Shown here: positions 13,169 to 32,691 of the stretch, in pieces
How the letters are laid out: each line of letters begins with the position of its first letter
Position numbering within the stretch: the first letter of the stretch is position 1
Assembly: GCA_041576165.1 (NCBI GenBank)
Contig: JBFGLM010000003.1
Span: 32,001 to 96,000 of the forward strand
Reading direction: 5' to 3'
Length of the DNA: 64,000 nucleotides
Origin: Acidimicrobiia bacterium
GTDB taxonomy: Bacteria > Actinomycetota > Acidimicrobiia > Spongiisociales > Spongiisociaceae
The notes under the pieces: model-generated
Databases searched by the model: none
What the model saw: the letters and a program-made list of their open reading frames with translations, nothing else
Told to the model about the DNA's origin: nothing
Position numbers and translations under genes: made by a program

Positions 13169-13360
13169 CGCATTAGTGCGGCGTTATGCCAGCATCCTGG
13201 ACCTTTCCGTGGCTATGCTCCTGGACCATTCGTTGAGATACGCAACGAGGGAGCGGAGAGAAGGGGCATAGGTCGGGTTCCGGTCGCCCGAGACGGCGCA
13301 CGTGCTGGCGCGCCTGCTCCTCTTGATCCGCCCGTGTGGGCGCTCGAAAGGGGAAGCACC

Positions 13361-16300
13361 ATGAAGCGATGGCAGCCGAGGCTGGCGCTCGTGGTCGCGT
13401 TGGCGATGATGACGAGCTTGCTGGGAGCCTCGAGTGCGCTGGCGGATGACATCGCCATCGACGGACCGTTCATCGAAAGGGCCAGTTTCACTGGCAACGT
13501 CGATGTGGTGTACGCACAGATGGGCCTTTACCGGGATGTCCAAGACGGTCAGCTGACCGTCACAGTTCCCGGAACGGCCACCGGCGTGGTGGCGGCTTAC
13601 CTGTGGTGGAGTGGCCGGATAGGCGATTCGTTCGGGCCACCTCCGGACTCGGGGGACGACACCGTCGACATCACCATCAACGGCGGCACCACCCAGACCA
13701 TCACCGCCACCGACACGTTCTACTCAGACGCGGCCAACCCGTTCATTCACTACAACTATTGGTACGACCTGACGGGCCAGGTCGGGCTCGGCTCGACCAC
13801 GATCCTGCTGGAGGGTTTCGACCTCCAGGTTCCGGCCAACGTCAACAACCGCCACAACGGGTTCGGCGTCGCCGTCGTCTATGAGGACCCAACCGTTCCC
13901 GAAACGACATTGATCATCAAAGACGGCAACGACCGGGGCTACTGGGCATGGCCGTCGCCGGCCGGCCCGGATTCGGCCGTCCAGTGTTTCGACGTGGTGC
14001 CGTCTCCGGTGGCCCAGCAGTTCGAGATCACCGTCAACATCACGGCCGTCGACTCCAATGACTCGTTTGTGCGGCCCCAGACTCTGTGGTGGCTGACCGG
14101 CACCGGCGCACAACCCTCCGGTGACAACGCCGACACCTCTGGGATGAAGGCATTGGGGACTCCGAGAGTGAACCCGGTGTTCCCGGGGACCGGCAACACC
14201 GACCCGTACGGTTTCGAGTGGGTGAGTTTTGACGTCACCGTCCCGGCCGGCGACGAATGGGTGTGCATGCAGCTGGAGTCGGTGACCGAGAATCCGGGCC
14301 AGATCGGCGCCACCACCGGCTGGAGCGCCCTCGGTTTTGGAGCGCCCACCCTGCACCGGCTCGGCAACCTGGTGTGGTTCGACACCGACGACAACGGGCT
14401 GGCCGACGCAGGAGAGCCCGGCATCGCCGGTGTCACGGTCGAACTGTACGACGCCGGGGGTGCACTCGTTGCCACCACGGTCACCGACGCCGACGGCAAA
14501 TACGAGTTCCCCGGCTTGCCGGCCGGTGACTACAGGGTCCTGATCCCCGCCGGACAGGTGGTTCTGGACGGTCTGTTCTCGTCCTCGATCGAGGTTTCGG
14601 ATCCCAATACGGACCTCGACAACGACGACAACGGCCTGGCCGACCCGGCCGGCATCCGTTCGGGAGTTGTCACGGTCGGCGACGCGGTTGGCCCCGACTT
14701 CTCCGACGACGCCTCGAACGAGCCAACCGACGAGATACTGCGGTCGAACGATGCCACCGACGACGATCCAATCGATCCGCCGTATGAGGACGTCCGCTCG
14801 AACTACTCGGTCGATTTCGGCTTCTCGGGCGAGATCCTGCAGACATTCTCGATCGGCAACCAGGTTTGGTTCGACGACGACGGTGACGGGCTCCGCGACC
14901 CCACTGAGGGCGGCGTACCCGGCGCGGTGGTCCTGTTGATCGACGCCGGCGGCACCACGGTGCAGACCACCACGACCGACGCCGACGGCCTCTATCTGTT
15001 CACCGAGGTACCGGCCGGCAACTACGCGGTCAAGATCGCCGACGAGAACTTCGTGGCCGGAGCCGTGCTGGACGGCTACAACCCGACTCCCTTCATGGAA
15101 GCCGACCCGAACACCGACGTGGACAACGACTCGAACGCGATCGTCGTCGACGGCATGGTGGTGTCGGGCACGGTGACGGTGGGCGACGGCGAGCCGACCG
15201 GGGAGGATCCCAACAACGATCCCGCGACACCTGATGTCGACTCCAACCTGACGGTCGACTTCGGCTTCGTCCTCGGCGGGGAAAACCTGGTTTCGATCGG
15301 GAATCTCGTCTGGGAGGACGTGAACGACAACGGTCTCGTCGACACGGGCGAGCCGGTCTTCGCTGGCGTTGATGTCAACTTGTGGTCGGCGGCCGGCGAC
15401 GGCACCCCGCTCGCGTTGGTCGCAACAACTGCGACGGACGCCGATGGGCACTACGCCTTCCTGGTCGACGAAGGCACGTATATCGTCCAGATCCCACCCG
15501 AGGAATTCGCCCCCGGCGGACCGCTCGAGGGCTATGTGTCCTCGACCCCGACCTTCGACCCGACCAACGGCGTCGACAACGATGACAACGGCGACGACGA
15601 CCCAACGCTCGGGATCATCACCGCCTCCATCACTGCGGCGGTCGGAACCGCACCGACGGGTGAGGCCGATCCTGATCCGTTCGGTGTACCCGACGCCGAC
15701 AGCGACCTGACGATCGACCTCGGACTGGTGGACACCTTCGCCGGGATCGGCGACTTTGTATGGTTCGACGAGAAGACACCCGAAGGCGGCCCAGGCAACA
15801 ACGTCCAGGATCCGGGTGAGCCCGGCATCCCGGGCGTCACGGTCCGGCTGTACGACATGGACGGCGTGGTGGTCGGCACCACGGTGACCGACGCCACCGG
15901 GTTCTATGAGTTCCGGGTGCCACCCGGCGATTACTGGCTCGAGTTCGAGTGGGATCCCACCACGCAGGTCCCGGTGTCGAACCCGTCGCTGTACAACCCC
16001 GGTGATGCGCTGATATTGGTGAACCCTGATGTGGGAACCGACGACACGATCGACTCGGACGGGTCAAAGACGAAGACGGCGGACAACATCGCTCGAACTG
16101 AAGCCACGACGCTGGACCCCGGGGAGTTCGATCCGACCTGGGACCTCGGTCTCAGCCGGTCTCTCGAAGTCCAGGACGAAAGGATCGCCATCGGCAATCT
16201 GGTTTGGTGGGACTTCGATTTCGACGGCATTGCCGATCCCGGTGAGCCGCGACTGGACGGGGTGACCATCGAGGTGTGGCTGTCGGACGCGGTCGGCAAC

Positions 16301-16840
16301 ATCGTGGGAACTGCTCCGGAGGCCACCACAATCACCGACGCCAACGGTCATTACTACGTGTCGTTCGATCAGGACGTGCTCAATGTCCGGGTGAGGGTGG
16401 CGCCCTCCAACTTCGCGAACGGCGGCCCGCTGCGGGACGCATCCGGTCAGATCATGTTCTCAACTACCGGCACGTTCGGCTCGGACGACGGGGTGGACAA
16501 CGACGACAACGGTCGGGACGTGGCGACGCCACAAAATGGCGGCGTCTGGTCGGACGTGATTCAACTGCAATTCGACACCGAACCGGTCGGAGAGGCCGAC
16601 CCGATCCCGCCAGGGGTCGACTTCGACGAACTCGACGACAACGACGCCGACTTCACCGTCGACTTCGGGTTCATCGGCTGTGACGGTGTCTCCCAGACCC
16701 ACCCGGTGACCGGTGCTCTATGTGTGGTGACCGGCCATGAGAGCAGCGAACAAGCCGGATTCGGTCTGATGCTGCTGGGCTTTGGGATGCTGATGGTGCT
16801 GTCGGCCAATGACTGGGACCGCCGGCGGTCGAGCGAATAG
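13361..16840 (+). CDS. Large secreted surface protein with five SdrD B-like (Cna-B) repeats and a C-terminal anchor
   Basis: Signal peptide MKRWQPRLALVVALAMMTSLLGASSALA. Five [IL]G[ND]xVWxD...E..G.xV.L units, very Asp-rich. C-terminus CVVTG + TM + RRR. Confidence 0.88.
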   Translation: MKRWQPRLALVVALAMMTSLLGASSALADDIAIDGPFIERASFTGNVDVVYAQMGLYRDVQDGQLTVTVPGTATGVVAAYLWWSGRIGDSFGPPPDSGDDTVDITINGGTTQTITATDTFYSDAANPFIHYNYWYDLTGQVGLGSTTILLEGFDLQVPANVNNRHNGFGVAVVYEDPTVPETTLIIKDGNDRGYWAWPSPAGPDSAVQCFDVVPSPVAQQFEITVNITAVDSNDSFVRPQTLWWLTGTGAQPSGDNADTSGMKALGTPRVNPVFPGTGNTDPYGFEWVSFDVTVPAGDEWVCMQLESVTENPGQIGATTGWSALGFGAPTLHRLGNLVWFDTDDNGLADAGEPGIAGVTVELYDAGGALVATTVTDADGKYEFPGLPAGDYRVLIPAGQVVLDGLFSSSIEVSDPNTDLDNDDNGLADPAGIRSGVVTVGDAVGPDFSDDASNEPTDEILRSNDATDDDPIDPPYEDVRSNYSVDFGFSGEILQTFSIGNQVWFDDDGDGLRDPTEGGVPGAVVLLIDAGGTTVQTTTTDADGLYLFTEVPAGNYAVKIADENFVAGAVLDGYNPTPFMEADPNTDVDNDSNAIVVDGMVVSGTVTVGDGEPTGEDPNNDPATPDVDSNLTVDFGFVLGGENLVSIGNLVWEDVNDNGLVDTGEPVFAGVDVNLWSAAGDGTPLALVATTATDADGHYAFLVDEGTYIVQIPPEEFAPGGPLEGYVSSTPTFDPTNGVDNDDNGDDDPTLGIITASITAAVGTAPTGEADPDPFGVPDADSDLTIDLGLVDTFAGIGDFVWFDEKTPEGGPGNNVQDPGEPGIPGVTVRLYDMDGVVVGTTVTDATGFYEFRVPPGDYWLEFEWDPTTQVPVSNPSLYNPGDALILVNPDVGTDDTIDSDGSKTKTADNIARTEATTLDPGEFDPTWDLGLSRSLEVQDERIAIGNLVWWDFDFDGIADPGEPRLDGVTIEVWLSDAVGNIVGTAPEATTITDANGHYYVSFDQDVLNVRVRVAPSNFANGGPLRDASGQIMFSTTGTFGSDDGVDNDDNGRDVATPQNGGVWSDVIQLQFDTEPVGEADPIPPGVDFDELDDNDADFTVDFGFIGCDGVSQTHPVTGALCVVTGHESSEQAGFGLMLLGFGMLMVLSANDWDRRRSSE

Positions 16841-17519: not shown

Positions 17520-17978
17520 TCAGGTTTCGAGGAGCTCTTTGAGCCGGTGATAGTCGCCGCGGACCGATCGTTGTGCCACAACGCGTAGCAAAGGGCCGAA
17601 CACACGAAAGAACCCGCCCGGCTCACCCGCCACGTCGGCGGTCACCCGGCAGCGGTCCGGTGAGAGTGGTTCAACGGCCCGGGTGACCCGGATCGGAAAG
17701 CTGGACTGCCTGGATTCGATCGTGACAGATCGTCCGGGATCGAGGGCCACCAGTTCGAACGAGGTAACGACCTCGCGACCTAGAAAACGGGCGACCTGCT
17801 CGTAGGTCGAGCCAATCCGCAGCGGTGGGTCGCTGGTCCAAACGGCGCTCTGCATGCCGCTTTGCCACTCGGGGTTTCGCGAAAAGTCGGAAATGACTGC
17901 GAAGACGTCTGCGGCGGGCCGGTCGATCTCGATCGAGGACTGCATCCGCACGATTCCTCCACTATTTGGTACCGTCAT
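17520..17978 (-). CDS. SRPBCC (polyketide cyclase/START-like) family protein
   Basis: SIEIDRPAADVFAVISDFSRNPEWQ..., typical length and pattern for the family. Confidence 0.85.
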   Translation of the reverse strand: MTVPNSGGIVRMQSSIEIDRPAADVFAVISDFSRNPEWQSGMQSAVWTSDPPLRIGSTYEQVARFLGREVVTSFELVALDPGRSVTIESRQSSFPIRVTRAVEPLSPDRCRVTADVAGEPGGFFRVFGPLLRVVAQRSVRGDYHRLKELLET

Positions 17979-18028: not shown

Positions 18029-18676
18029 TCACGCTGGTGTGAGATCGACGATCAGCGCCTTGTGGTCCGATCCCCGAACCTTGACGACGTCGGCCCCCGT
18101 TGCTCGATAGCCATGGGCGAAGACGTGATCGATCCGTAACATGGCCGGCCAGCCCGGTCGCCATCCCCAGGTAGCCCGCGGTCTCCAGCCCTCGGCAGCG
18201 GCGAGATCCGCAACCGTATCATCGACGTGGCGCACGATGCGCCGGTACGCCAGCCAGGCGGGGGTCGAGTTGAAGTCACCGCCCACAATGCGGCGCCGAG
18301 GGTCAGAAATGAGGCCCTCGAGCACCCTGACCTGCGCGCGCCTCTCTGGCAGCCGTCCACGCCAGCCGTCAATCGGGTTGGCCAGGTGCACGGCGAGCAC
18401 CTCTAGATCGAGATCGCTCGAGTGGCCGCGCAGGATCGAACGGTAAGGAAAATCGAGCTCTTCGACTGCGATGGGGAAACTGGCCGCAATGGCCTTGCCC
18501 CGATAGTCCAGCGTCGGTTTCACCACGCCGTGAGAGAAGTGGCGCTCGATCACTTCGCCGGAGTTCGGAGCAAGCTCTTGGGCCAGCAGCAGGTCGGGCT
18601 CATACCGAGCGAGCGACCGCTCGAAGTCGCTGGGCGACGCGTCGCCGTTGAGAAGGTTGATGGTCATTACCCGCAT
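18029..18676 (-). CDS. Endonuclease/exonuclease/phosphatase family protein
   Basis: RVMTINL, DLLLAQEL, VHL, GGDFNS, RIDHVF, GSDHKAL. Confidence 0.9.
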   Translation of the reverse strand: MRVMTINLLNGDASPSDFERSLARYEPDLLLAQELAPNSGEVIERHFSHGVVKPTLDYRGKAIAASFPIAVEELDFPYRSILRGHSSDLDLEVLAVHLANPIDGWRGRLPERRAQVRVLEGLISDPRRRIVGGDFNSTPAWLAYRRIVRHVDDTVADLAAAEGWRPRATWGWRPGWPAMLRIDHVFAHGYRATGADVVKVRGSDHKALIVDLTPA

Positions 18677-18817: not shown

Positions 18818-19243
18818 TTAGTCTGAGAAGAGGTCGCGTCGAACGTCGGGCAGTGCGCGGCTACGGAGCACGATGTCGCGACGATACGACTGGTGGATCC
18901 GTCGGATTTCCTCGTCGGCTTCTTGGGCGGTGAGCGCTACCTTGGCCCTGAGCCGTTTCACCTCGGCGCGGAGTCGATCGACCTCGTTCTGGAGCTCCAT
19001 GATCCGCTTGACACCCTCCAGATTGATACCCTGGTCGGTCAGATCTTGGATCAGCCCCAGGCGCTCGAGGTCGTCATCGGAATAGCGGCGAGTACCTCCC
19101 GGGGTGCGGTAAGGATCGATCAGCCCCCGTCGCTCGTAGATGCGGAGCGTCTGAGGGTGCATGCCGGCCAGCGAGGCGGCCACTGAGATGACGTATACCG
19201 CTTTCGTTTCTTGCTCTTGGGACTTCTTCGCCATTTCGATCAC
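18818..19243 (-). CDS. hspR: Heat-shock repressor HspR (MerR family)
   Basis: VYVISVAASLAGMHPQTLRIYERRGLIDPYRTPGGTRRYS, GINLEGVKRI. Last gene of the dnaK operon. The start may instead be the ATG at 19234. Confidence 0.93.
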   Translation of the reverse strand: MIEMAKKSQEQETKAVYVISVAASLAGMHPQTLRIYERRGLIDPYRTPGGTRRYSDDDLERLGLIQDLTDQGINLEGVKRIMELQNEVDRLRAEVKRLRAKVALTAQEADEEIRRIHQSYRRDIVLRSRALPDVRRDLFSD

Positions 19244-20373
19244 ACCTTGAGATGAGCTCGCGGATCTTCAGTTTCGTATTGTTCTTTGAATTCTTCGAGC
19301 ATTCGCTTGGCCTCGCGCGACAGCCGGGACGGCACCGCTACCTCGACCGTGACCAGCAGGTTCCCCGGTCGCCCTTTCTCCTTCTGGACTCCTCGCTTGG
19401 GAATCCGGAACGTCTTGCCCGAGTTGGTGCCTGCCGGGATCTTCAACGTCACCGGCTCGTCGAGAGTCGGCACTGGAACCTTCGCCCCGAGCGTCGCCTC
19501 GGTGAACGTAATGGGCAGTCGCAGGGTCAGATCGTCACCCTTGCGCCCAAACAACGGGTGACGCCCGACCTTCACCTTCACGATCAGATCGCCCGCCGGT
19601 CCGCCGTCGCTGCCCGGGGCCCCCTTTCCCCGCAGCCGGATGTTGTCTCCGTCTTTCACACCCGCGGGAATCTTCACCTTGATGTTGCGGACGCGCCGTT
19701 CCCGACCGGTTCCACGGCAGCGGTCGCACGGATGCGGGATCAACCGGCCGTTGCCCCGACACTGGGGGCAGGGCTCCGAGAACGAAAAGACACCCTGATT
19801 GCTGGCAATGGTTCCGGCGCCGGCACAGGTCGGACAGACATCGACCGATGTACCCGGCTGAGCCCCTGACCCGCGGCACAGGCGGCAGCGAGCCTCGCCG
19901 TCGACGGCCACGGTCGTCGTTGCCCCCTTGACCGCGTCCTCGAAAGATATGTTGAGTGTTGAAGTGAGATCTGCACCCCGCCTCGGACCACGGCTACGCG
20001 TGCGCGCCGTCCGGCCAAATCCTCCGAAGAGGTCGCCGAGGCCCCCTTCTCCAAAGAGATCGGACAAGTCCTCGACCCGCACGCGCCGGCCATTGCCGAA
20101 TCCCCCGAACCCTCCCGGTCCTCCCGTGAAGTCTCCCGAGTCGACCATCTGCCGCACCTGGTCGTATTCCTTGCGCCTCTCCGGGTTGGAGAGGGTGGCG
20201 TAGGCCTCCGAGACCTCTTTGAAGCGCGCCTCGGCGGCTGGATCGTCCGGTTTGGTGTCCGGGTGATTCTCCTGGGCGAGCTTGCGATACGCCTTCTTTA
20301 TCTCGGCTTCGCTCGCCGTAGGCGATACCCCGAGTGTCTTGTAGAAGTTCTTCTCGACCCATTCGCGGTTCAT
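19240..20373 (-). CDS. dnaJ: Chaperone DnaJ (class A)
   Basis: J-domain with HPD, G/F region, four CxxCxGxG motifs (CRLCRGSG, CPTCAGAG, CPQCRGNG, CDRCRGTG) and C-terminal domains. Confidence 0.97.
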   Translation of the reverse strand: MNREWVEKNFYKTLGVSPTASEAEIKKAYRKLAQENHPDTKPDDPAAEARFKEVSEAYATLSNPERRKEYDQVRQMVDSGDFTGGPGGFGGFGNGRRVRVEDLSDLFGEGGLGDLFGGFGRTARTRSRGPRRGADLTSTLNISFEDAVKGATTTVAVDGEARCRLCRGSGAQPGTSVDVCPTCAGAGTIASNQGVFSFSEPCPQCRGNGRLIPHPCDRCRGTGRERRVRNIKVKIPAGVKDGDNIRLRGKGAPGSDGGPAGDLIVKVKVGRHPLFGRKGDDLTLRLPITFTEATLGAKVPVPTLDEPVTLKIPAGTNSGKTFRIPKRGVQKEKGRPGNLLVTVEVAVPSRLSREAKRMLEEFKEQYETEDPRAHLKV

Positions 20374-21404
20374 AGCGGGTCCCCCTCATCGATCGGGGAT
20401 TCGAGTGACGGTCCGACCTGGCTGTACGCCACCGTTACCAAGGCCGGGCGAATCACCTGGCCCCGGATTCGGTAGCCGCGACGTACCTCGCCGGTCACGA
20501 CCAGCGAACCATGGCCCCCCGGGGCGACCCGGACGGCTTCGTGGACGGCCGGGTCATAGGGGTGCCCGACCGTCGGGATGATCTCCATCTGGCCCTCGAG
20601 TGCTTCAACCAGGCCAGCGAACGAGCCGCGGGTGGCGTCGGGCCGCATCGTGTCGTTGGAATGCGGCTCCAGGATGACGAACAAGTCGCCAGCCCGGCCG
20701 TCCGGCGTGATGATCCCGCGTCCTTCGATCTTGAATCTGGAGCCGATCGTCGTTCCAGGCGGGATGGTGATCGTCACTGGACCGGTGAGAGTGGGAACGA
20801 GTACGTCGGCTCCCATGGCTGCGTCGGACAGCGCAACCGGGACGCGGGTCGTGAGGTGATGGCCGTCCCGCTCGAACGTTTCGTGCCGGGGCACGTGGAT
20901 GATGACGATGAGGTCGCCGGGCGCGCCCCGATCTTCCGGCCGGCGTCCCTGTCCCTCGATCCTGACGATGTCGCCGTCGTCGACGCCGGCAGGCAGTTTC
21001 ACGGTGATGCGGCTGCCGTCGTCGAGCGTGACAACCACGCTTGCCCCCCGGGCGGCCTGTTCGAGCGGGAGAGTGGCACTGGTGATGATGTGCCGGCCGA
21101 GCACAGCTCCGGCAACCGACGCGCTGAATCGCTCCTCGTCCTCGACCCCGTCAGCGCCGGCTTTCGGGGCCGTCTTGTCGATCTGCATCCGGTCGTACAG
21201 ATCGCGCTGGATCGGATCCGACAAGACCCCGTACGCGACGGCGATCGCTTTGAAGCGTTCCTCCGCCAAAGGGTCGTCGGGGTTGGCGTCGGGATGATGC
21301 TGCTGAGCCAGGCGGCGATAGGCGTGTTTGATCTCGGCGGCGTCGACGTCAGGCGCCACCTCCAAGATCCCGTAGAAGTCGTGAGCGGCCCATCCCCGGC
21401 TCAT
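20370..21404 (-). CDS. Chimeric J-domain / DnaJ_C / GrpE-head protein
   Basis: N-terminal J-domain (YRRLAQQHHPDANP), DnaJ CTD (VKLPAGVDDGDIVRIEGQG..PGDLIV; VPTLTGPVTITIPPGT), then a GrpE C-terminal motif (GHPYDPAVHEAV..VVTGEVRRGYRIRGQVIRPALVTV). Confidence 0.88.
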   Translation of the reverse strand: MSRGWAAHDFYGILEVAPDVDAAEIKHAYRRLAQQHHPDANPDDPLAEERFKAIAVAYGVLSDPIQRDLYDRMQIDKTAPKAGADGVEDEERFSASVAGAVLGRHIITSATLPLEQAARGASVVVTLDDGSRITVKLPAGVDDGDIVRIEGQGRRPEDRGAPGDLIVIIHVPRHETFERDGHHLTTRVPVALSDAAMGADVLVPTLTGPVTITIPPGTTIGSRFKIEGRGIITPDGRAGDLFVILEPHSNDTMRPDATRGSFAGLVEALEGQMEIIPTVGHPYDPAVHEAVRVAPGGHGSLVVTGEVRRGYRIRGQVIRPALVTVAYSQVGPSLESPIDEGDPL

Positions 21405-21997
21405 TCTGGCTGATCCGCCTCCTCGTATCCCACTGACACCAGCGCTGCGCGCAGAACCCGGTCCTGGAACTGGTATCCCCGGCGCAGTTCGGCTGTTACC
21501 ACCATGGTGCCTGATCCTTCATCGATTTGTATGGCCTCATGCATAGCCGGATCAAACGGCAGCCCGATGGACTCGATGGGCGTCAGGCCCTCTTGGGCCA
21601 GAACCCCGAGCAACTGGTCTCGGGTGCCGCGCATGCCCTCGAGTAGCTTCTCTGAGGCCTCACCGTCCGGTTCTACCGCCATTGCTGCGTCCAGGCTGTC
21701 CAATACAGGCAGCAGGCTCATAACCACTCGTTCCGAGGCGCGAGCGACGAGCTCGGCCTGGTCGCGCTGGGATCGCTTGCGGAAGTTGTCGAACTCGGCG
21801 GCCATGCGCCGGTAATCGTCGAGATATCGCGTGGCATCAGCACGCGCGGCCGCCAGTGCCTCCTGCAGCACAGCGATCGCCTCCTGCGGATCGTCGGGCA
21901 GGACGATCGGCTCGGTGAATTCGGCGTTGCCCGTGATCACCTCAGTCGAGGCGACCACGTCTTCCGACAGATGTTCGTTCGGTGCGTCGTTAGCCAT
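21401..21997 (-). CDS. grpE: Nucleotide exchange factor GrpE
   Basis: RMAAEFDNFRKR, LLPVLDSL, GLPFDPAMHEAI, RRGYQFQDRVLRAALVSV. The start could extend to 22027. Confidence 0.95.
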   Translation of the reverse strand: MANDAPNEHLSEDVVASTEVITGNAEFTEPIVLPDDPQEAIAVLQEALAAARADATRYLDDYRRMAAEFDNFRKRSQRDQAELVARASERVVMSLLPVLDSLDAAMAVEPDGEASEKLLEGMRGTRDQLLGVLAQEGLTPIESIGLPFDPAMHEAIQIDEGSGTMVVTAELRRGYQFQDRVLRAALVSVGYEEADQPE

Positions 21998-22023
21998 GCT
22001 GGATCCGCCTTGATGACGACGCA

Positions 22024-23859
<1,836 letters not shown>

Positions 23860-23980
23860 GTGGTCTGCTCCTTGTTCCCGTTCGTTGGTTCCCCATCTGC
23901 CGGGGCCGGCAGGTGCAGGCGCGCACCATGCTCATAGCCACCCTCTGCGGCCCCTCTCCGGCGCAGGTTACACAACTTTC

Positions 23981-24020
23981 ATTGACTTAATAGCTATAAC
24001 CTGAGTCAACCCATATCATA
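23981..24020. promoter_or_regulatory. Tandem degenerate HAIR-like operators in the dnaK promoter
   Basis: CCTGAGT-N7-TATCATA (24000-24020) and ATTGACT-N7-TATAACC (23981-24001) lie in an AT-rich island upstream of dnaK. Confidence 0.6.
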
Positions 24021-24289
24021 TTTCCACAATCTCAGGATAATTCAAGAGGGTTTGTCGATCGACGCCAAAACGGCTGCACCGCCGGCGTCTCGGCCCCGGC
24101 AACAGCTACGGCCACGGCTGCCACGGCCGGTGCAGAACCGGAGCAAGCCGAGCCAACGGGCGTGTGCGAGGGGATAGCGGATGCGCCGTCCCCCCTCGTG
24201 GTGGACGGCAGCGACCCGTGCGGTGCGATCCAGCGAGTGACAGGCCAGGGCCTCAGATGGTGCTCGGCGGCGGCATGCCGCCGGCGCTA

Positions 24290-25438
24290 TCACCCGTAGC
24301 TGCGCTTGGCCACCTCTTCCAGCATCACTTCGGTGGCGCCGCCGCCGATGGAGAGGATGCGCGCGTCGCGGGACATCCGCTCCACCGCAGTCTCCGTCAT
24401 GTAGCCCATGCCGCCGTGGAACTGAACGCATTCATACATGATCTGATTGATCGCTTCAGCCCCCCAGGCCTTGACACCGGAGATCTCTTTGGTGGCATCA
24501 ACACCCTGCTCCATCAGCCAGGCCGCGTGGTACAGCGCCGCCCGGACTGCGTCGAGCTTGGCCTGAGCCATGGCGAGGCGCTGCCGGATCGCACCCAGGT
24601 CGAAGAGGGTTGCTCCAAATGCTCGACGATTCCGTGCGTGTTCGAGGGTGAGGTTGATGGCGACCTGCGCGGCCCCCACTCCCATTCCCACGAGGACCAT
24701 CCGCTCGTTCTGGAAGTTCCGCATGATCTCGGTGAAACCCTGATGCTCCATGCCGAGCAGATTCTCGTTCGGAACCCACACGCCGTCGAGGGCTAACTCG
24801 GCGGTGTCGGAGCTCCGCCACCCGGTCTTCTCGAGTTTCTTCGAGACTGTGAACCCCTCCCGGTCCTTCTCGACTATGAACATCGACAGGCCGTAGCGGT
24901 CTTCCGTGTTGGTCCGGGCGGCGACGATGACGAGGTCGCCGTACACCGCATTGGTGATGAACAGCTTGTTGCCGGTGATCCGCCATCCGTCGCCGTCTCG
25001 AACTGCCCGGGTACGCATCCCGGCTACATCCGAGCCGGCGTCGGGCTCGGTCACGCCGATAGCCGTGATGGTATCGCCGCTGAGGATGCCCGGCAGCAGT
25101 CGCTGCAGCTGGTCCTTGGTGCCCGAGTGGATGAGATGCGGCGTCGCCATGTCGGTATGTACGAGGACGGTCACGTCGAAACCGCCGAAAGTGGACGACC
25201 CGAGGGCCTCAGAGAAGGTCGCCGAAGCCAGCGGACCGAGACCCAGGCCCCCGTGTTCTTCCGGCACCCGTGGGCCGAACATCCCCAGCGCACCCATCTT
25301 CTGCAAGACGTCGCGGGGGACAAATCCTGCTTCCTCCCACTGGTGAGCGTGGGGCGTCACTTCCTTGGCGACGAACTCGACGGTTTGGTCGTAGATCGCC
25401 TGCAGTTCGTCGGTCATATAGATGTTGCGAAGAGTCAT
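24290..25438 (-). CDS. Acyl-CoA dehydrogenase
   Basis: AIGVTEPDAGSDVA, GNKLFITNA, KTGWRSSDTAEL, RRAFG, QFHGGMGY, IGGGATEV. Its ATG overlaps the tetR stop. Confidence 0.95.
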   Translation of the reverse strand: MTLRNIYMTDELQAIYDQTVEFVAKEVTPHAHQWEEAGFVPRDVLQKMGALGMFGPRVPEEHGGLGLGPLASATFSEALGSSTFGGFDVTVLVHTDMATPHLIHSGTKDQLQRLLPGILSGDTITAIGVTEPDAGSDVAGMRTRAVRDGDGWRITGNKLFITNAVYGDLVIVAARTNTEDRYGLSMFIVEKDREGFTVSKKLEKTGWRSSDTAELALDGVWVPNENLLGMEHQGFTEIMRNFQNERMVLVGMGVGAAQVAINLTLEHARNRRAFGATLFDLGAIRQRLAMAQAKLDAVRAALYHAAWLMEQGVDATKEISGVKAWGAEAINQIMYECVQFHGGMGYMTETAVERMSRDARILSIGGGATEVMLEEVAKRSYG

Positions 25439-26043
25439 CGAGCGTCCTCCTGGTCTGAAGTCCGAATGCCGTGCCACGTGGTCTGTGCGAAGTGATCGAT
25501 GAGAGCCTCGAGCGGGCGTTGCCTCCCCGGCACAAACCACTCGAGCGAGCTGTTCATCGATCCCAGCAAGGTGAGGCGCGTCAAGTGCAGGTCGACCCCC
25601 GGGCGGATGGAGCCGGTTGCGCCGAGCGATCGAAATAGGTCGGCCCATCGACCCTCGTATTCGTCCCGGATCGGGACAATCGTGTCACGGACCGCAGCCG
25701 GGGCCCGGCTGAACACCGTCACGTGGGCGGCGGTGAACGGGCCGTATGCGAACAACGCCCGCAGGTGCGCGGCGATGGCGGCACGCAGACGAACCTCCGG
25801 CGGCGCTTCGCTGGTCTCGGCTACCGCGTCCTCGTGCGCTGCGGTGATCCGTTCCATTCCCAGACGGAGGATGTCGGCCAGCAAGACGTCCTTCGAGTTG
25901 AAGTGGTAGTAGATGGAGGCTGCCTTCAATCCCGCCCGATCTGCAATCGTCCGCAGGCTGGTTTCGGTATAACCGAGCTCGATGAACAGGTCGGCTCCGA
26001 TCTGCAACAGGCGGTCGCGGGTGTCGACCTGAGTGTCGGTCAT
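25435..26043 (-). CDS. TetR/AcrR family regulator (KstR2-like)
   Basis: LFIELGYTETSLRTIADRAGLKAASIYYHFNSKDVLL HTH, with a C-terminal LLGSMNSSLEWF. Confidence 0.92.
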   Translation of the reverse strand: MTDTQVDTRDRLLQIGADLFIELGYTETSLRTIADRAGLKAASIYYHFNSKDVLLADILRLGMERITAAHEDAVAETSEAPPEVRLRAAIAAHLRALFAYGPFTAAHVTVFSRAPAAVRDTIVPIRDEYEGRWADLFRSLGATGSIRPGVDLHLTRLTLLGSMNSSLEWFVPGRQRPLEALIDHFAQTTWHGIRTSDQEDAR

Positions 26044-31335: not shown

Positions 31336-32691
31336 TCAGGGCGACCAGGTTGCGTTGATCCCGTCGGCGATCAGTATGGGTGATCCTGAGTCAATTGGTT
31401 GGACCCAGATGCCGGCCGCTCCGCCGTGGGTGCCTCCGGCGTAGACGAAGGCAGACGAGTCGGGCGACCAGAGAGAAACGCTGCGCTCGTACTGGTCGAA
31501 GAAGCTGAGGTAGCCGTTGCCGAACCGCGACGTCGGTGTGAACGCTTCGTAAGTGGTGGCGCCCGATCCATTCCACTCGTGCCATTGAATCTTCTGTATC
31601 CCGTCCATGAATGCGATGGTGCTGAACAGCAAGTGCTCGCCGTCGGGGCTCCAGGCCCATGAGACCGCCCGACCTTCGGCCACCGGAGTGACCGCGCCGT
31701 CCTCGAGGTCGATCACCACCAGATTCTCCGGCACCAGGATGGGGAGATCGGACAGGGTGGATTCGCTGATTTCGACGCCTTCGGGGGTCCAGGTGCTCAT
31801 CACTGCCAGCCGGTCAGTGTGTTCGTGGGTGACGACCGCCGCCGGGGCACTGAATCGGATCAGAGGGAGAGGATTGACCCCATTGGGACTGGCCACGGTG
31901 AGTATCTCTCCTACCTCACCGCCGTCGACCGAGTAGATGATGCGTTCGCCGGTGTGAGTTCCCACCCGGAACTGTCCATCCGTGGGGATGGTGGTCAGCG
32001 TCTCACCGGTGAGCGCGATCAACTCGAACCGCTCCTCGATGTGTACGAGAAGTGCGTCGCTGTCTGGTGCCCAGTCGACGTACATAGGTGCGCCAGTGCC
32101 GATGATGGCCGCCGCCTGGCCGGCCTGAGCTACCGCCAGCTGCATCTCGCCCCAGAAATCGTTACCCATGAACGCGACCGACGCACCGTCCGGTGACCAG
32201 GCGAGGTACTGGGCTTGGATCGGGGAATCAGCACGGCTTTGCTCGGCGCCGTCGGCCGACGCGATCACCAGCTGGTAAGAGTCCTCGCCGATCTCTTCGG
32301 TCCATGCAATCCGACTGCCGTCCGGCGACCACGTCGGCTGCGCGCGCCGGACATCGTTGGCCGGAGCGATGACCACCGGCCGGCTGCCGTCGGGTTGTAC
32401 GGTGAAGATGGACCAGTCCCTTCCCAAAACCAGAATCCGCCCGGCGACATCTCGCACCCGCATGTGGTCGGCTTCAGACACGACATCAAGGCTCGGGGTA
32501 GTTGTCGGCGCCGGCGTTGTCGCCGGCGGATCGAAATCCGGCAGCGCCGTCTGTTCAGGAGGGCGCTGGTTCGTGCAAGCGGCCGCGGCGAGGGCAACGA
32601 CGAGGATGGCGGCGCTGATCCTCGAGCGCGGTCGGGGGCGGCCACCGGACGAGGTGGGGACGCCCAACCCGGGAATGGTCTGGCGCTCCAT
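31336..32691 (-). CDS. TolB-like beta-propeller lipoprotein
   Basis: Lipobox AAAC and repeated W[SA]PD motifs. Confidence 0.8.
   Translation of the reverse strand: MERQTIPGLGVPTSSGGRPRPRSRISAAILVVALAAAACTNQRPPEQTALPDFDPPATTPAPTTTPSLDVVSEADHMRVRDVAGRILVLGRDWSIFTVQPDGSRPVVIAPANDVRRAQPTWSPDGSRIAWTEEIGEDSYQLVIASADGAEQSRADSPIQAQYLAWSPDGASVAFMGNDFWGEMQLAVAQAGQAAAIIGTGAPMYVDWAPDSDALLVHIEERFELIALTGETLTTIPTDGQFRVGTHTGERIIYSVDGGEVGEILTVASPNGVNPLPLIRFSAPAAVVTHEHTDRLAVMSTWTPEGVEISESTLSDLPILVPENLVVIDLEDGAVTPVAEGRAVSWAWSPDGEHLLFSTIAFMDGIQKIQWHEWNGSGATTYEAFTPTSRFGNGYLSFFDQYERSVSLWSPDSSAFVYAGGTHGGAAGIWVQPIDSGSPILIADGINATWSP

Follow-up and report, generated by a model that had tools for sequence, protein, structure and literature searches.

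J-proteins and nucleotide exchange factors, which are as a rule separate proteins, intervene at opposite stages of the Hsp70 cycle. The locus described here raises the question of what a single gene joining parts of the two could be doing inside a dnaK operon. It lies in a 64,000-nucleotide stretch from an uncultured Acidimicrobiia bacterium (positions 32,001 to 96,000 of contig JBFGLM010000003.1, assembly GCA_041576165.1), referred to below as the window, where five genes are tightly packed on the minus strand in the order dnaK-grpE-fusion-dnaJ-hspR/MerR (Table 1). We find that the fusion gene is genuine and under selection, and that it adds a third co-chaperone gene to the dnaK operon. Its product is a class-B-like J-protein, with a J-domain carrying the HPD motif, a short disordered linker and C-terminal domains (CTDs) I-II. 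We favour, with moderate confidence, the interpretation that the protein would use its additional, GrpE-derived segment as a second docking module for the nucleotide-binding domain (NBD) of DnaK.

A preliminary description of the window had proposed a three-domain chimera, with a J-domain containing an intact HPD motif, DnaJ C-terminal domains and a GrpE head, located between intact grpE and dnaJ genes. This architecture was recovered in hidden Markov model (HMM) searches, in which all three Pfam matches exceeded the curated cut-offs. The GrpE match (residues 274-326, E = 5.8e-9) scored 36.3 bits against a cut-off of 25.8 and spanned only positions 111-164 of the 165 in the profile. The finer points of that description were also borne out, namely that the protein has neither a zinc finger nor a glycine/phenylalanine-rich (G/F) region, that its tail aligns with the neighbouring GrpE, that its N terminus mirrors that of DnaJ, and that both gene junctions are ATGA overlaps. 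A Pfam search gave no match to the zinc finger (PF00684) in the fusion and gave one in the neighbouring DnaJ, and the G/F and zinc-finger columns were gaps when the fusion was aligned with the operon DnaJ (DnaJ1), with DnaJ2 and with operon DnaJs lacking the zinc finger. An N-terminal motif common to the fusion and DnaJ was seen in the alignment, and ATGA overlaps join the end of grpE to the start of the fusion and the end of the fusion to the start of dnaJ. Homology to DnaJ stops directly after CTD II, and the C-terminal ~30 residues of DnaJ1 (about 346-377) have no counterpart. The genome of the window has three J-domain genes, DnaJ1, the fusion and DnaJ2, the last on a separate contig, and a whole-genome scan found one full-length GrpE in addition to the partial one in the fusion.

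The tail of the fusion was 38.8% identical to the neighbouring GrpE over 98 residues (BLASTP, E = 1.4e-15) and matched five GrpE sequences of solved structure, 4ani (1.8e-8), 8gb3, 3a6m, 1dkg and 9blt. The alignment starts at residue 251 of the fusion, equivalent to residue 125 of the GrpE encoded in the same operon, in the loop preceding the last helix of the helical part, and extends to the end of the beta domain (GrpE residue 201). When this GrpE was aligned to the Escherichia coli chain of 1dkg, the E. coli helix 117-129 corresponded to fusion residues 252-264; the fusion junction is the positional homologue of the last helix of the GrpE bundle. The disordered N-terminal tail of GrpE, its long dimerising helix and almost all of its four-helix bundle are missing, which leaves the beta domain and a poorly predicted stub of one bundle helix, and the single-chain fusion cannot form that bundle. 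The protein qualifies as a J-domain protein, by its J-domain and HPD motif, and as a member of PF01025, and it scored well below the profiles for complete proteins of either kind: 183.1 bits against a cut-off of 377.2 for class-A DnaJ (TIGR02349), 154.9 against 403 for CbpA (NF007618), and no more than 41.6 for the NCBIfam GrpE equivalogs, whose cut-offs start at 137. As for class-B or CbpA proteins, it has CTD I-II and is devoid of the G/F region and the C-terminal segment; as for a functional GrpE, it has a beta domain with conserved DnaK-facing residues, and the long helix and four-helix bundle are absent. In databases, the fusion proteins are named solely 'molecular chaperone DnaJ'.

A gene of this composition might also be a misassembly, or a functionless, decaying by-product of a recent duplication, and the genome is indeed a draft assembly (161 contigs, 7.5% contamination). 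Contigs from public sequencing runs were therefore compared with the window over positions 19900-21900. A single contig from run X1 (20232-21803) covered the whole fusion gene, and a single contig from run X3 (20422-21438) ran across it; both runs may stem from the sample used for the assembly itself, and so do not count as independent evidence. In run X5, which comes from another study, separate contigs crossed the junction with dnaJ (20231-20432), the internal junction (20428-20687) and the junction with grpE (21113-21431), each with no more than one differing letter.

A protein search returned 26 protein clusters with all three Pfam domains (329-344 residues, 47-100% identity), and below these the scores fell to those of ordinary DnaJs. 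A search with the tail only gave 260 candidates, of which the 26 matches comprised 22 fusions and four ordinary GrpEs; no other architecture carrying the tail was found in that search (proteins of 189-602 residues). Among 401 sampled genomes of the order, the fusion was present in four, including that of the window, and in three of 107 genera. All of these genera fall in one family (f1), in which the bearers are four of 29 genomes, again counting the window's own; the fusion-bearing genomes are 72-96.5% complete. Two unpublished genomes (G028 and G039) were used solely as two comparison rows and as two fusion-less genomes. The fusion gene is restricted to one small, uncultured clade within the Acidimicrobiia. 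One further cluster (P0027; five member sequences, 239 residues, on a 43.7-kb contig) has the DnaJ_C and GrpE domains and lacks the J-domain. Its start corresponds to about residue 95, and it could represent either a miscalled start or a variant without the J-domain.

We obtained eight distinct DNA loci of the fusion. grpE lies directly upstream in all seven loci with visible upstream sequence, dnaJ lies directly downstream in all six with visible downstream sequence, and all eight are consistent, with no exceptions, with the order dnaK-grpE-fusion-dnaJ-hspR wherever the flanks can be seen; in fusion-less relatives the order is dnaK-grpE-dnaJ-hspR. Overlaps of 4 nucleotides are present at both junctions in the window and in loci L003 and L004; L002 has the overlap at its downstream junction, and the start of its fusion gene is unclear. 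In one locus on a metagenome contig (L039:941-1919), the dnaJ that follows the fusion is split into two frames, by either a frameshift or a sequencing error.

Conservation was calculated by region over the 26 fusion members, and the GrpE-derived beta domain proved to be the best conserved (Table 1). All three residues of the HPD motif (H37, P38 and D39) are invariant in the 26 rows. In the closest pair of loci with DNA available (L002 and L003), the beta domain of the fusion had a dN of 0.026 and a dS of 0.553, giving a dN/dS ratio (omega) of 0.046 by the Nei-Gojobori method, compared with 0.142 for the beta domain of the true GrpE and about 0.05 for DnaJ1. Maximum likelihood (ML) codon models gave omega values of 0.03-0.05 in every region of all three genes across five genomes. 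A caution against our interpretation is that synonymous sites were saturated except in the closest pairs (tree lengths of 6-25, most above 10 substitutions per codon), so that all these models establish is an omega far below 1, and we relied mainly on the closest pair. The fusion is under purifying selection, and the suggestion in the preliminary description that its GrpE part is selected agrees with the value for that pair.

An intact frame in 26 clusters down to 47% identity, and omega far below 1, are difficult to reconcile with decay, just as single contigs spanning the gene and contigs of another study crossing every junction are difficult to reconcile with an assembly error. Together with the common architecture and shared synteny, these observations refute misassembly or decay, to which we attach next to no probability. 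The doubts voiced in the preliminary description have likewise dissolved: a GrpE profile does match, related genomes do carry the fusion, contigs do cross the junctions, and the tail does not evolve neutrally.

An AlphaFold2 model built from the 26 family members had a mean predicted local distance difference test (pLDDT) score of 78.7 and a predicted template modelling (pTM) score of 0.45. The J-domain (about 90), the CTDs (80-93) and the beta domain (residues 273-327, at 73-89) are predicted to be confidently folded units on disordered linkers, the latter comprising residues 78-94 and 251-262 with pLDDT below 50; a two-turn helix was modelled at residues 263-268, and the tail was disordered from residue 331. 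As indicated by the low pTM, the mutual placement of the domains was not predicted. Taken as a whole, the model was closest in fold to the zinc finger-less DnaJ of Thermus thermophilus (4j80_A, E = 1.3e-22, 34% identity). The GrpE beta domain, held on a flexible tether, stands in for the C-terminal segment of DnaJ. In DnaJ-type proteins, the segment after CTD II is the dimerisation element, consistent with the 'dimerization domain' entries among the fold matches. The preliminary description had suggested that the protein might dimerise through DnaJ_C, and this idea could not be upheld, since the segment after CTD II (about 346-377 in DnaJ1) is what the GrpE piece has replaced.

What, then, might the GrpE piece do? 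As in any J-protein, in which the J-domain triggers hydrolysis by DnaK-ATP, the J-domain of the fusion would engage DnaK-ATP and trigger hydrolysis. The GrpE-derived beta domain would then dock on the IB/IIB face of the DnaK NBD, in its ADP or empty state, as the proximal beta domain of GrpE does. The fusion, along with any client on its CTDs, would remain on DnaK for the whole of the cycle, taking up the site of GrpE. Both the docking and its consequence are what we infer. The tail carries the general GrpE signature in invariant form, as H288-E289, R308-R309-G310-Y311 and I318-R319-P320-A321. Passages of PMC4753570 state that the beta domain makes most of the contacts between GrpE and DnaK and inserts between subdomains IB and IIB. 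For the complex of Mycobacterium tuberculosis, PMC10803776 assigns the 'major' contact region I to the proximal beta domain on IB/IIB, and describes a salt bridge between GrpE R169 and DnaK E236. In our alignment to the solved GrpEs, the position of R169 is occupied by the invariant R308 of the fusion. We also predicted a complex of the DnaK NBD (residues 1-358, alignment of four rows) with the fusion tail (residues 256-330, 26 rows); it scored 0.17 against a mark of 0.32, and counts neither way.

Several observations weigh against docking of this kind. According to PMC10803776, the long helices of GrpE contribute contact regions II and III with DnaK, and a re-analysis of E. coli (PMC10825016) reports that productive opening requires contact between the IIB hairpin of DnaK and the four bundle helices (residues 94-106 and 117-129), and that GrpE G122D, which loses the bundle contact, binds weakly and does not promote exchange. 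The first of these bundle helices is absent from the fusion, and the counterpart of the second (residues 252-264) is predicted to be disordered and is variable. Within the beta domain, T278, G305 and E306 are invariant in the fusions and T304 is found in 25 of the 26 rows, at positions where true GrpEs differ, and such fusion-specific residues may indicate a surface that serves a changed partner. One of the three subclades has D/N-S in place of the D-P in its F-D-P motif.

The same evidence bears on a bolder proposal, that of the preliminary description, in which the fusion is a single-chain J-protein and exchange factor whose tethered beta domain opens the DnaK cleft in cis, such that one polypeptide brings about both hydrolysis and ADP release. 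Insertion of the beta domain into the cleft with most of the contacts, as described in PMC4753570, would suit this proposal, as would the invariance of R308 and of the RRGY and IRPA motifs, purifying selection on the beta domain that is no weaker than that on the true GrpE, and the thought that tethering through the J-domain and CTDs could offset a low intrinsic affinity. However, there is neither a long helix nor a four-helix bundle in the fusion, the bundle face is described as necessary for productive exchange and the G122D complex as weak and inactive in PMC10825016, and residues 251-262 are disordered in the model. Since the module has lost the long helix and almost the entire bundle, at most weak or partial nucleotide exchange is to be expected of it alone. 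Moreover, a full grpE is kept alongside the fusion in all seven loci with visible upstream sequence, which indicates that the cell has not replaced GrpE. We regard exchange in cis as unlikely. If it did occur, with ADP released as soon as the J-domain has acted, a monomeric co-chaperone could stay on DnaK and take a single client through cycle after cycle, with no need of the thermosensing GrpE dimer; it would then be the first natural protein to fuse the two opposing Hsp70 co-chaperone activities, and would delimit the smallest module capable of exchange.

Alternatively, the GrpE-derived domain may no longer address DnaK, having been recruited as an oligomerisation or client-binding domain that replaces the C-terminal segment of DnaJ. 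Its location is exactly where that segment was in DnaJ1; I276, T278, T304, G305, E306 and a G-S-F-x-G motif are invariant or nearly so in the fusions, unlike in true GrpEs, and a long stem branch (0.86) before a conserved clade fits a change in function. Against this, the invariant residues are those of the general GrpE signature (HEA, RRGY and IRPA) and go beyond a core that keeps the fold, and we know of no GrpE beta domain that self-associates. Recruitment away from DnaK thus strikes us as improbable, still more so than exchange in cis, and a second docking module for the DnaK NBD is the reading that we retain.

How the gene arose was examined with trees of the J/CTD part (51 rows, 282 columns) and of the GrpE part (40 rows, 78 columns). 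The fusions formed one clade with support of 100/100 in both trees, with the same three subclades and on long stem branches (0.88 and 0.86, respectively). Since both halves fall in single clades with matching subclades, they have been together since one fusion event, and the fusion has a single origin. The J half grouped with the operon DnaJs and not with DnaJ2 (82/59, ML tree), and a DnaJ1 profile gave 18 of 18 J halves a higher score than a DnaJ2 profile did (means of 186.8 and 153.1 bits). The operon DnaJ and the J half, unlike DnaJ2, have in common two indels in CTD II and, at the N terminus, an M-x-R-[DE]-W...[FY]-Y extension. Constraining the fusions to group with the family's own DnaJ1 improved the log-likelihood by 1.8, with a p value of 0.605 in the approximately unbiased (AU) test. 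The overlap of a grpE stop with a dnaJ start occurs twice at the locus, and the order grpE - dnaJ'::'grpE - dnaJ together with this doubled overlap is the expected outcome of a tandem duplication that begins in mid-grpE and ends late in dnaJ. One such event would have created a dnaJ-5'::grpE-3' junction gene, which would afterwards have lost the G/F region and zinc finger. This origin, put forward in the preliminary description, is compatible with the synteny, the matching clades and the DnaJ1-like J half, and is well supported by the sequences, short of proof. The AU tests were, however, of low power: grouping of the fusion with DnaJ2 was not rejected (p = 0.195), and neither was placement of the tail with the family's GrpE (p = 0.277).

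In four loci from other families of the order (L011, L012, L034 and L035; genomes G032, G033, G025 and G036), the operon dnaJ itself encodes a protein of 299-312 residues without a zinc finger. These proteins keep the G/F region and the DnaJ C terminus, and a profile made from them (four training rows only) fits the fusions less well than that of DnaJ1, at 167.2 bits. The zinc finger seems to have been lost from operon DnaJs of the order more than once. The DnaJ1 genes of the fusion bearers were placed as a basal grade of family f1 and not as one clade (supports of 88-98); if this placement is right, the fusion was ancestral to f1 and was lost in the crown genera.

Among the known systems close to it, the fusion shares its operon position with the class-A DnaJ1 of its own operon, as well as a J-domain with HPD, an N-terminal M-x-R-[DE]-W extension and CTD I-II, and differs from DnaJ1 in having no G/F region, zinc finger or segment after CTD II, and in its long stem branch (0.88). 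The layout of J-domain and CTD I-II is that of class-B J-proteins without a zinc finger, such as T. thermophilus DnaJ (4j80) and CbpA, although the fusion has no G/F region and has a GrpE domain in place of the C-terminal segment. The nearest clusters in the ESM Atlas were CbpA-like (score 0.80, a weak lead), and no neighbour cluster with a GrpE domain was found in the Atlas, which is limited to clusters of 50 or more members. With GrpE (PF01025; 1dkg, 4ani and 8gb3), it has in common a homologous beta domain, the HEA, RRGY and IRPA motifs and the Arg aligned with R169 of M. tuberculosis, but not the disordered N-terminal tail, the long dimerising helix or the four-helix bundle. A module that binds the Hsp70 NBD and is joined to other domains that recruit Hsp70 is known from the BAG proteins, as passages of PMC4753570 relate, and a GrpE with an added helix-turn-helix domain (All4144) is described in 10.1101/2025.04.14.648684. 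BAG proteins have no sequence relation to the fusion, and in contrast to such multi-domain exchange factors, the fusion has a truncated exchange-factor part, and its partner module is itself the second Hsp70 co-chaperone.

The fusion thus combines known kinds of protein, a J-protein and GrpE, and is no new kind of system. We found no description of a DnaJ-GrpE fusion in the full-text literature searched, a scope that leaves subscription papers and supplements outside, and a term look-up in PMC8215388 and PMC12874294 gave no mention of one. What sets the gene apart is that a J-domain and a GrpE head of the DnaK-contacting type occur on one strongly constrained chain, beside intact copies of both parents. 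It is in effect a natural 'beta domain only' construct of GrpE, and so poses the question whether the beta domain alone can bind DnaK or open its cleft, which bears on the debate over which GrpE surfaces do the work, as set out in parts of PMC10825016. It also raises the question of how an Hsp70 cycle would run with both co-chaperone contacts tethered together, and would, on the origin proposed above, illustrate neatly how a gene can arise at a tandem-duplication junction inside an essential operon.

Table 1. Features of the dnaK operon and of the fusion protein, by position in the window. Identity and invariant columns refer to the fusion members.
Feature	Positions	Strand	Evidence or remark	Mean pairwise identity	Invariant columns
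Fusion gene	20370..21404	-	Open reading frame, ATG start, 344 aa plus stop; three Pfam domains; architecture common to 26 clusters
J-domain, residues 9-71, HPD at 37-39	21192..21380	-	PF00226, E 5.2e-23; pLDDT about 90	63%	21 of 72
Short acidic linker, residues 73-105, where the G/F region would be	21090..21188	-	DnaJ1 alignment	42%	3 of 33
DnaJ CTD I-II, residues 109-245, zinc-finger hairpin excised	20670..21080	-	PF01556, E 1.2e-33, one stretch	53%	17 of 142
Fusion junction, residues 248-262	20619..20663	-	GrpE alignment; predicted disordered; crossed by contigs	47%	1 of 15
GrpE-derived stub helix (263-272) and beta domain (273-327)	20424..20618	-	PF01025; matches to solved GrpEs	71% (beta domain)	20 of 55 (beta domain)
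C-terminal tail, residues 328-344, variable, disordered, and stop codon	20370..20423	-	ATGA overlap with dnaJ start
dnaK, first gene of the operon	22024..23859	-	611 aa
grpE, intact	21401..22027	-	208 aa as longest open reading frame; PF01025, E 9.8e-38
dnaJ (DnaJ1), class A, intact	19240..20373	-	377 aa, zinc finger; TIGR02349, 384 against cut-off of 377
MerR-family regulator in hspR position, last gene of the operon	18818..19243	-	PF13411, E 4.2e-20

The place of the MerR-family gene in the hspR position is kept in relatives. No HspR operator site was found near dnaK within 3 mismatches of an HspR operator consensus; the single match to that consensus at this threshold lies at position 2332, and was equalled in 68 of 100 shuffles. 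The region upstream of dnaK (23860-24080) is AT-rich and has short inverted repeats, such as that formed by 23997-24005 and 24031-24039, and none of these repeats was common to the four loci scanned. The genes flanking the operon encode an SRPBCC/polyketide-cyclase-like protein (17520-17978), an endonuclease/exonuclease/phosphatase-family protein (18029-18676) and an acyl-CoA dehydrogenase (24290-25648), all on the minus strand and with no evident tie to the operon. Further away, on the plus strand (13334-16840), a gene encodes a protein of 1168 residues that is predicted to be secreted, and that has an N-terminal DUF3344, five SdrD B-like repeats and carboxypeptidase-regulatory-like domains.

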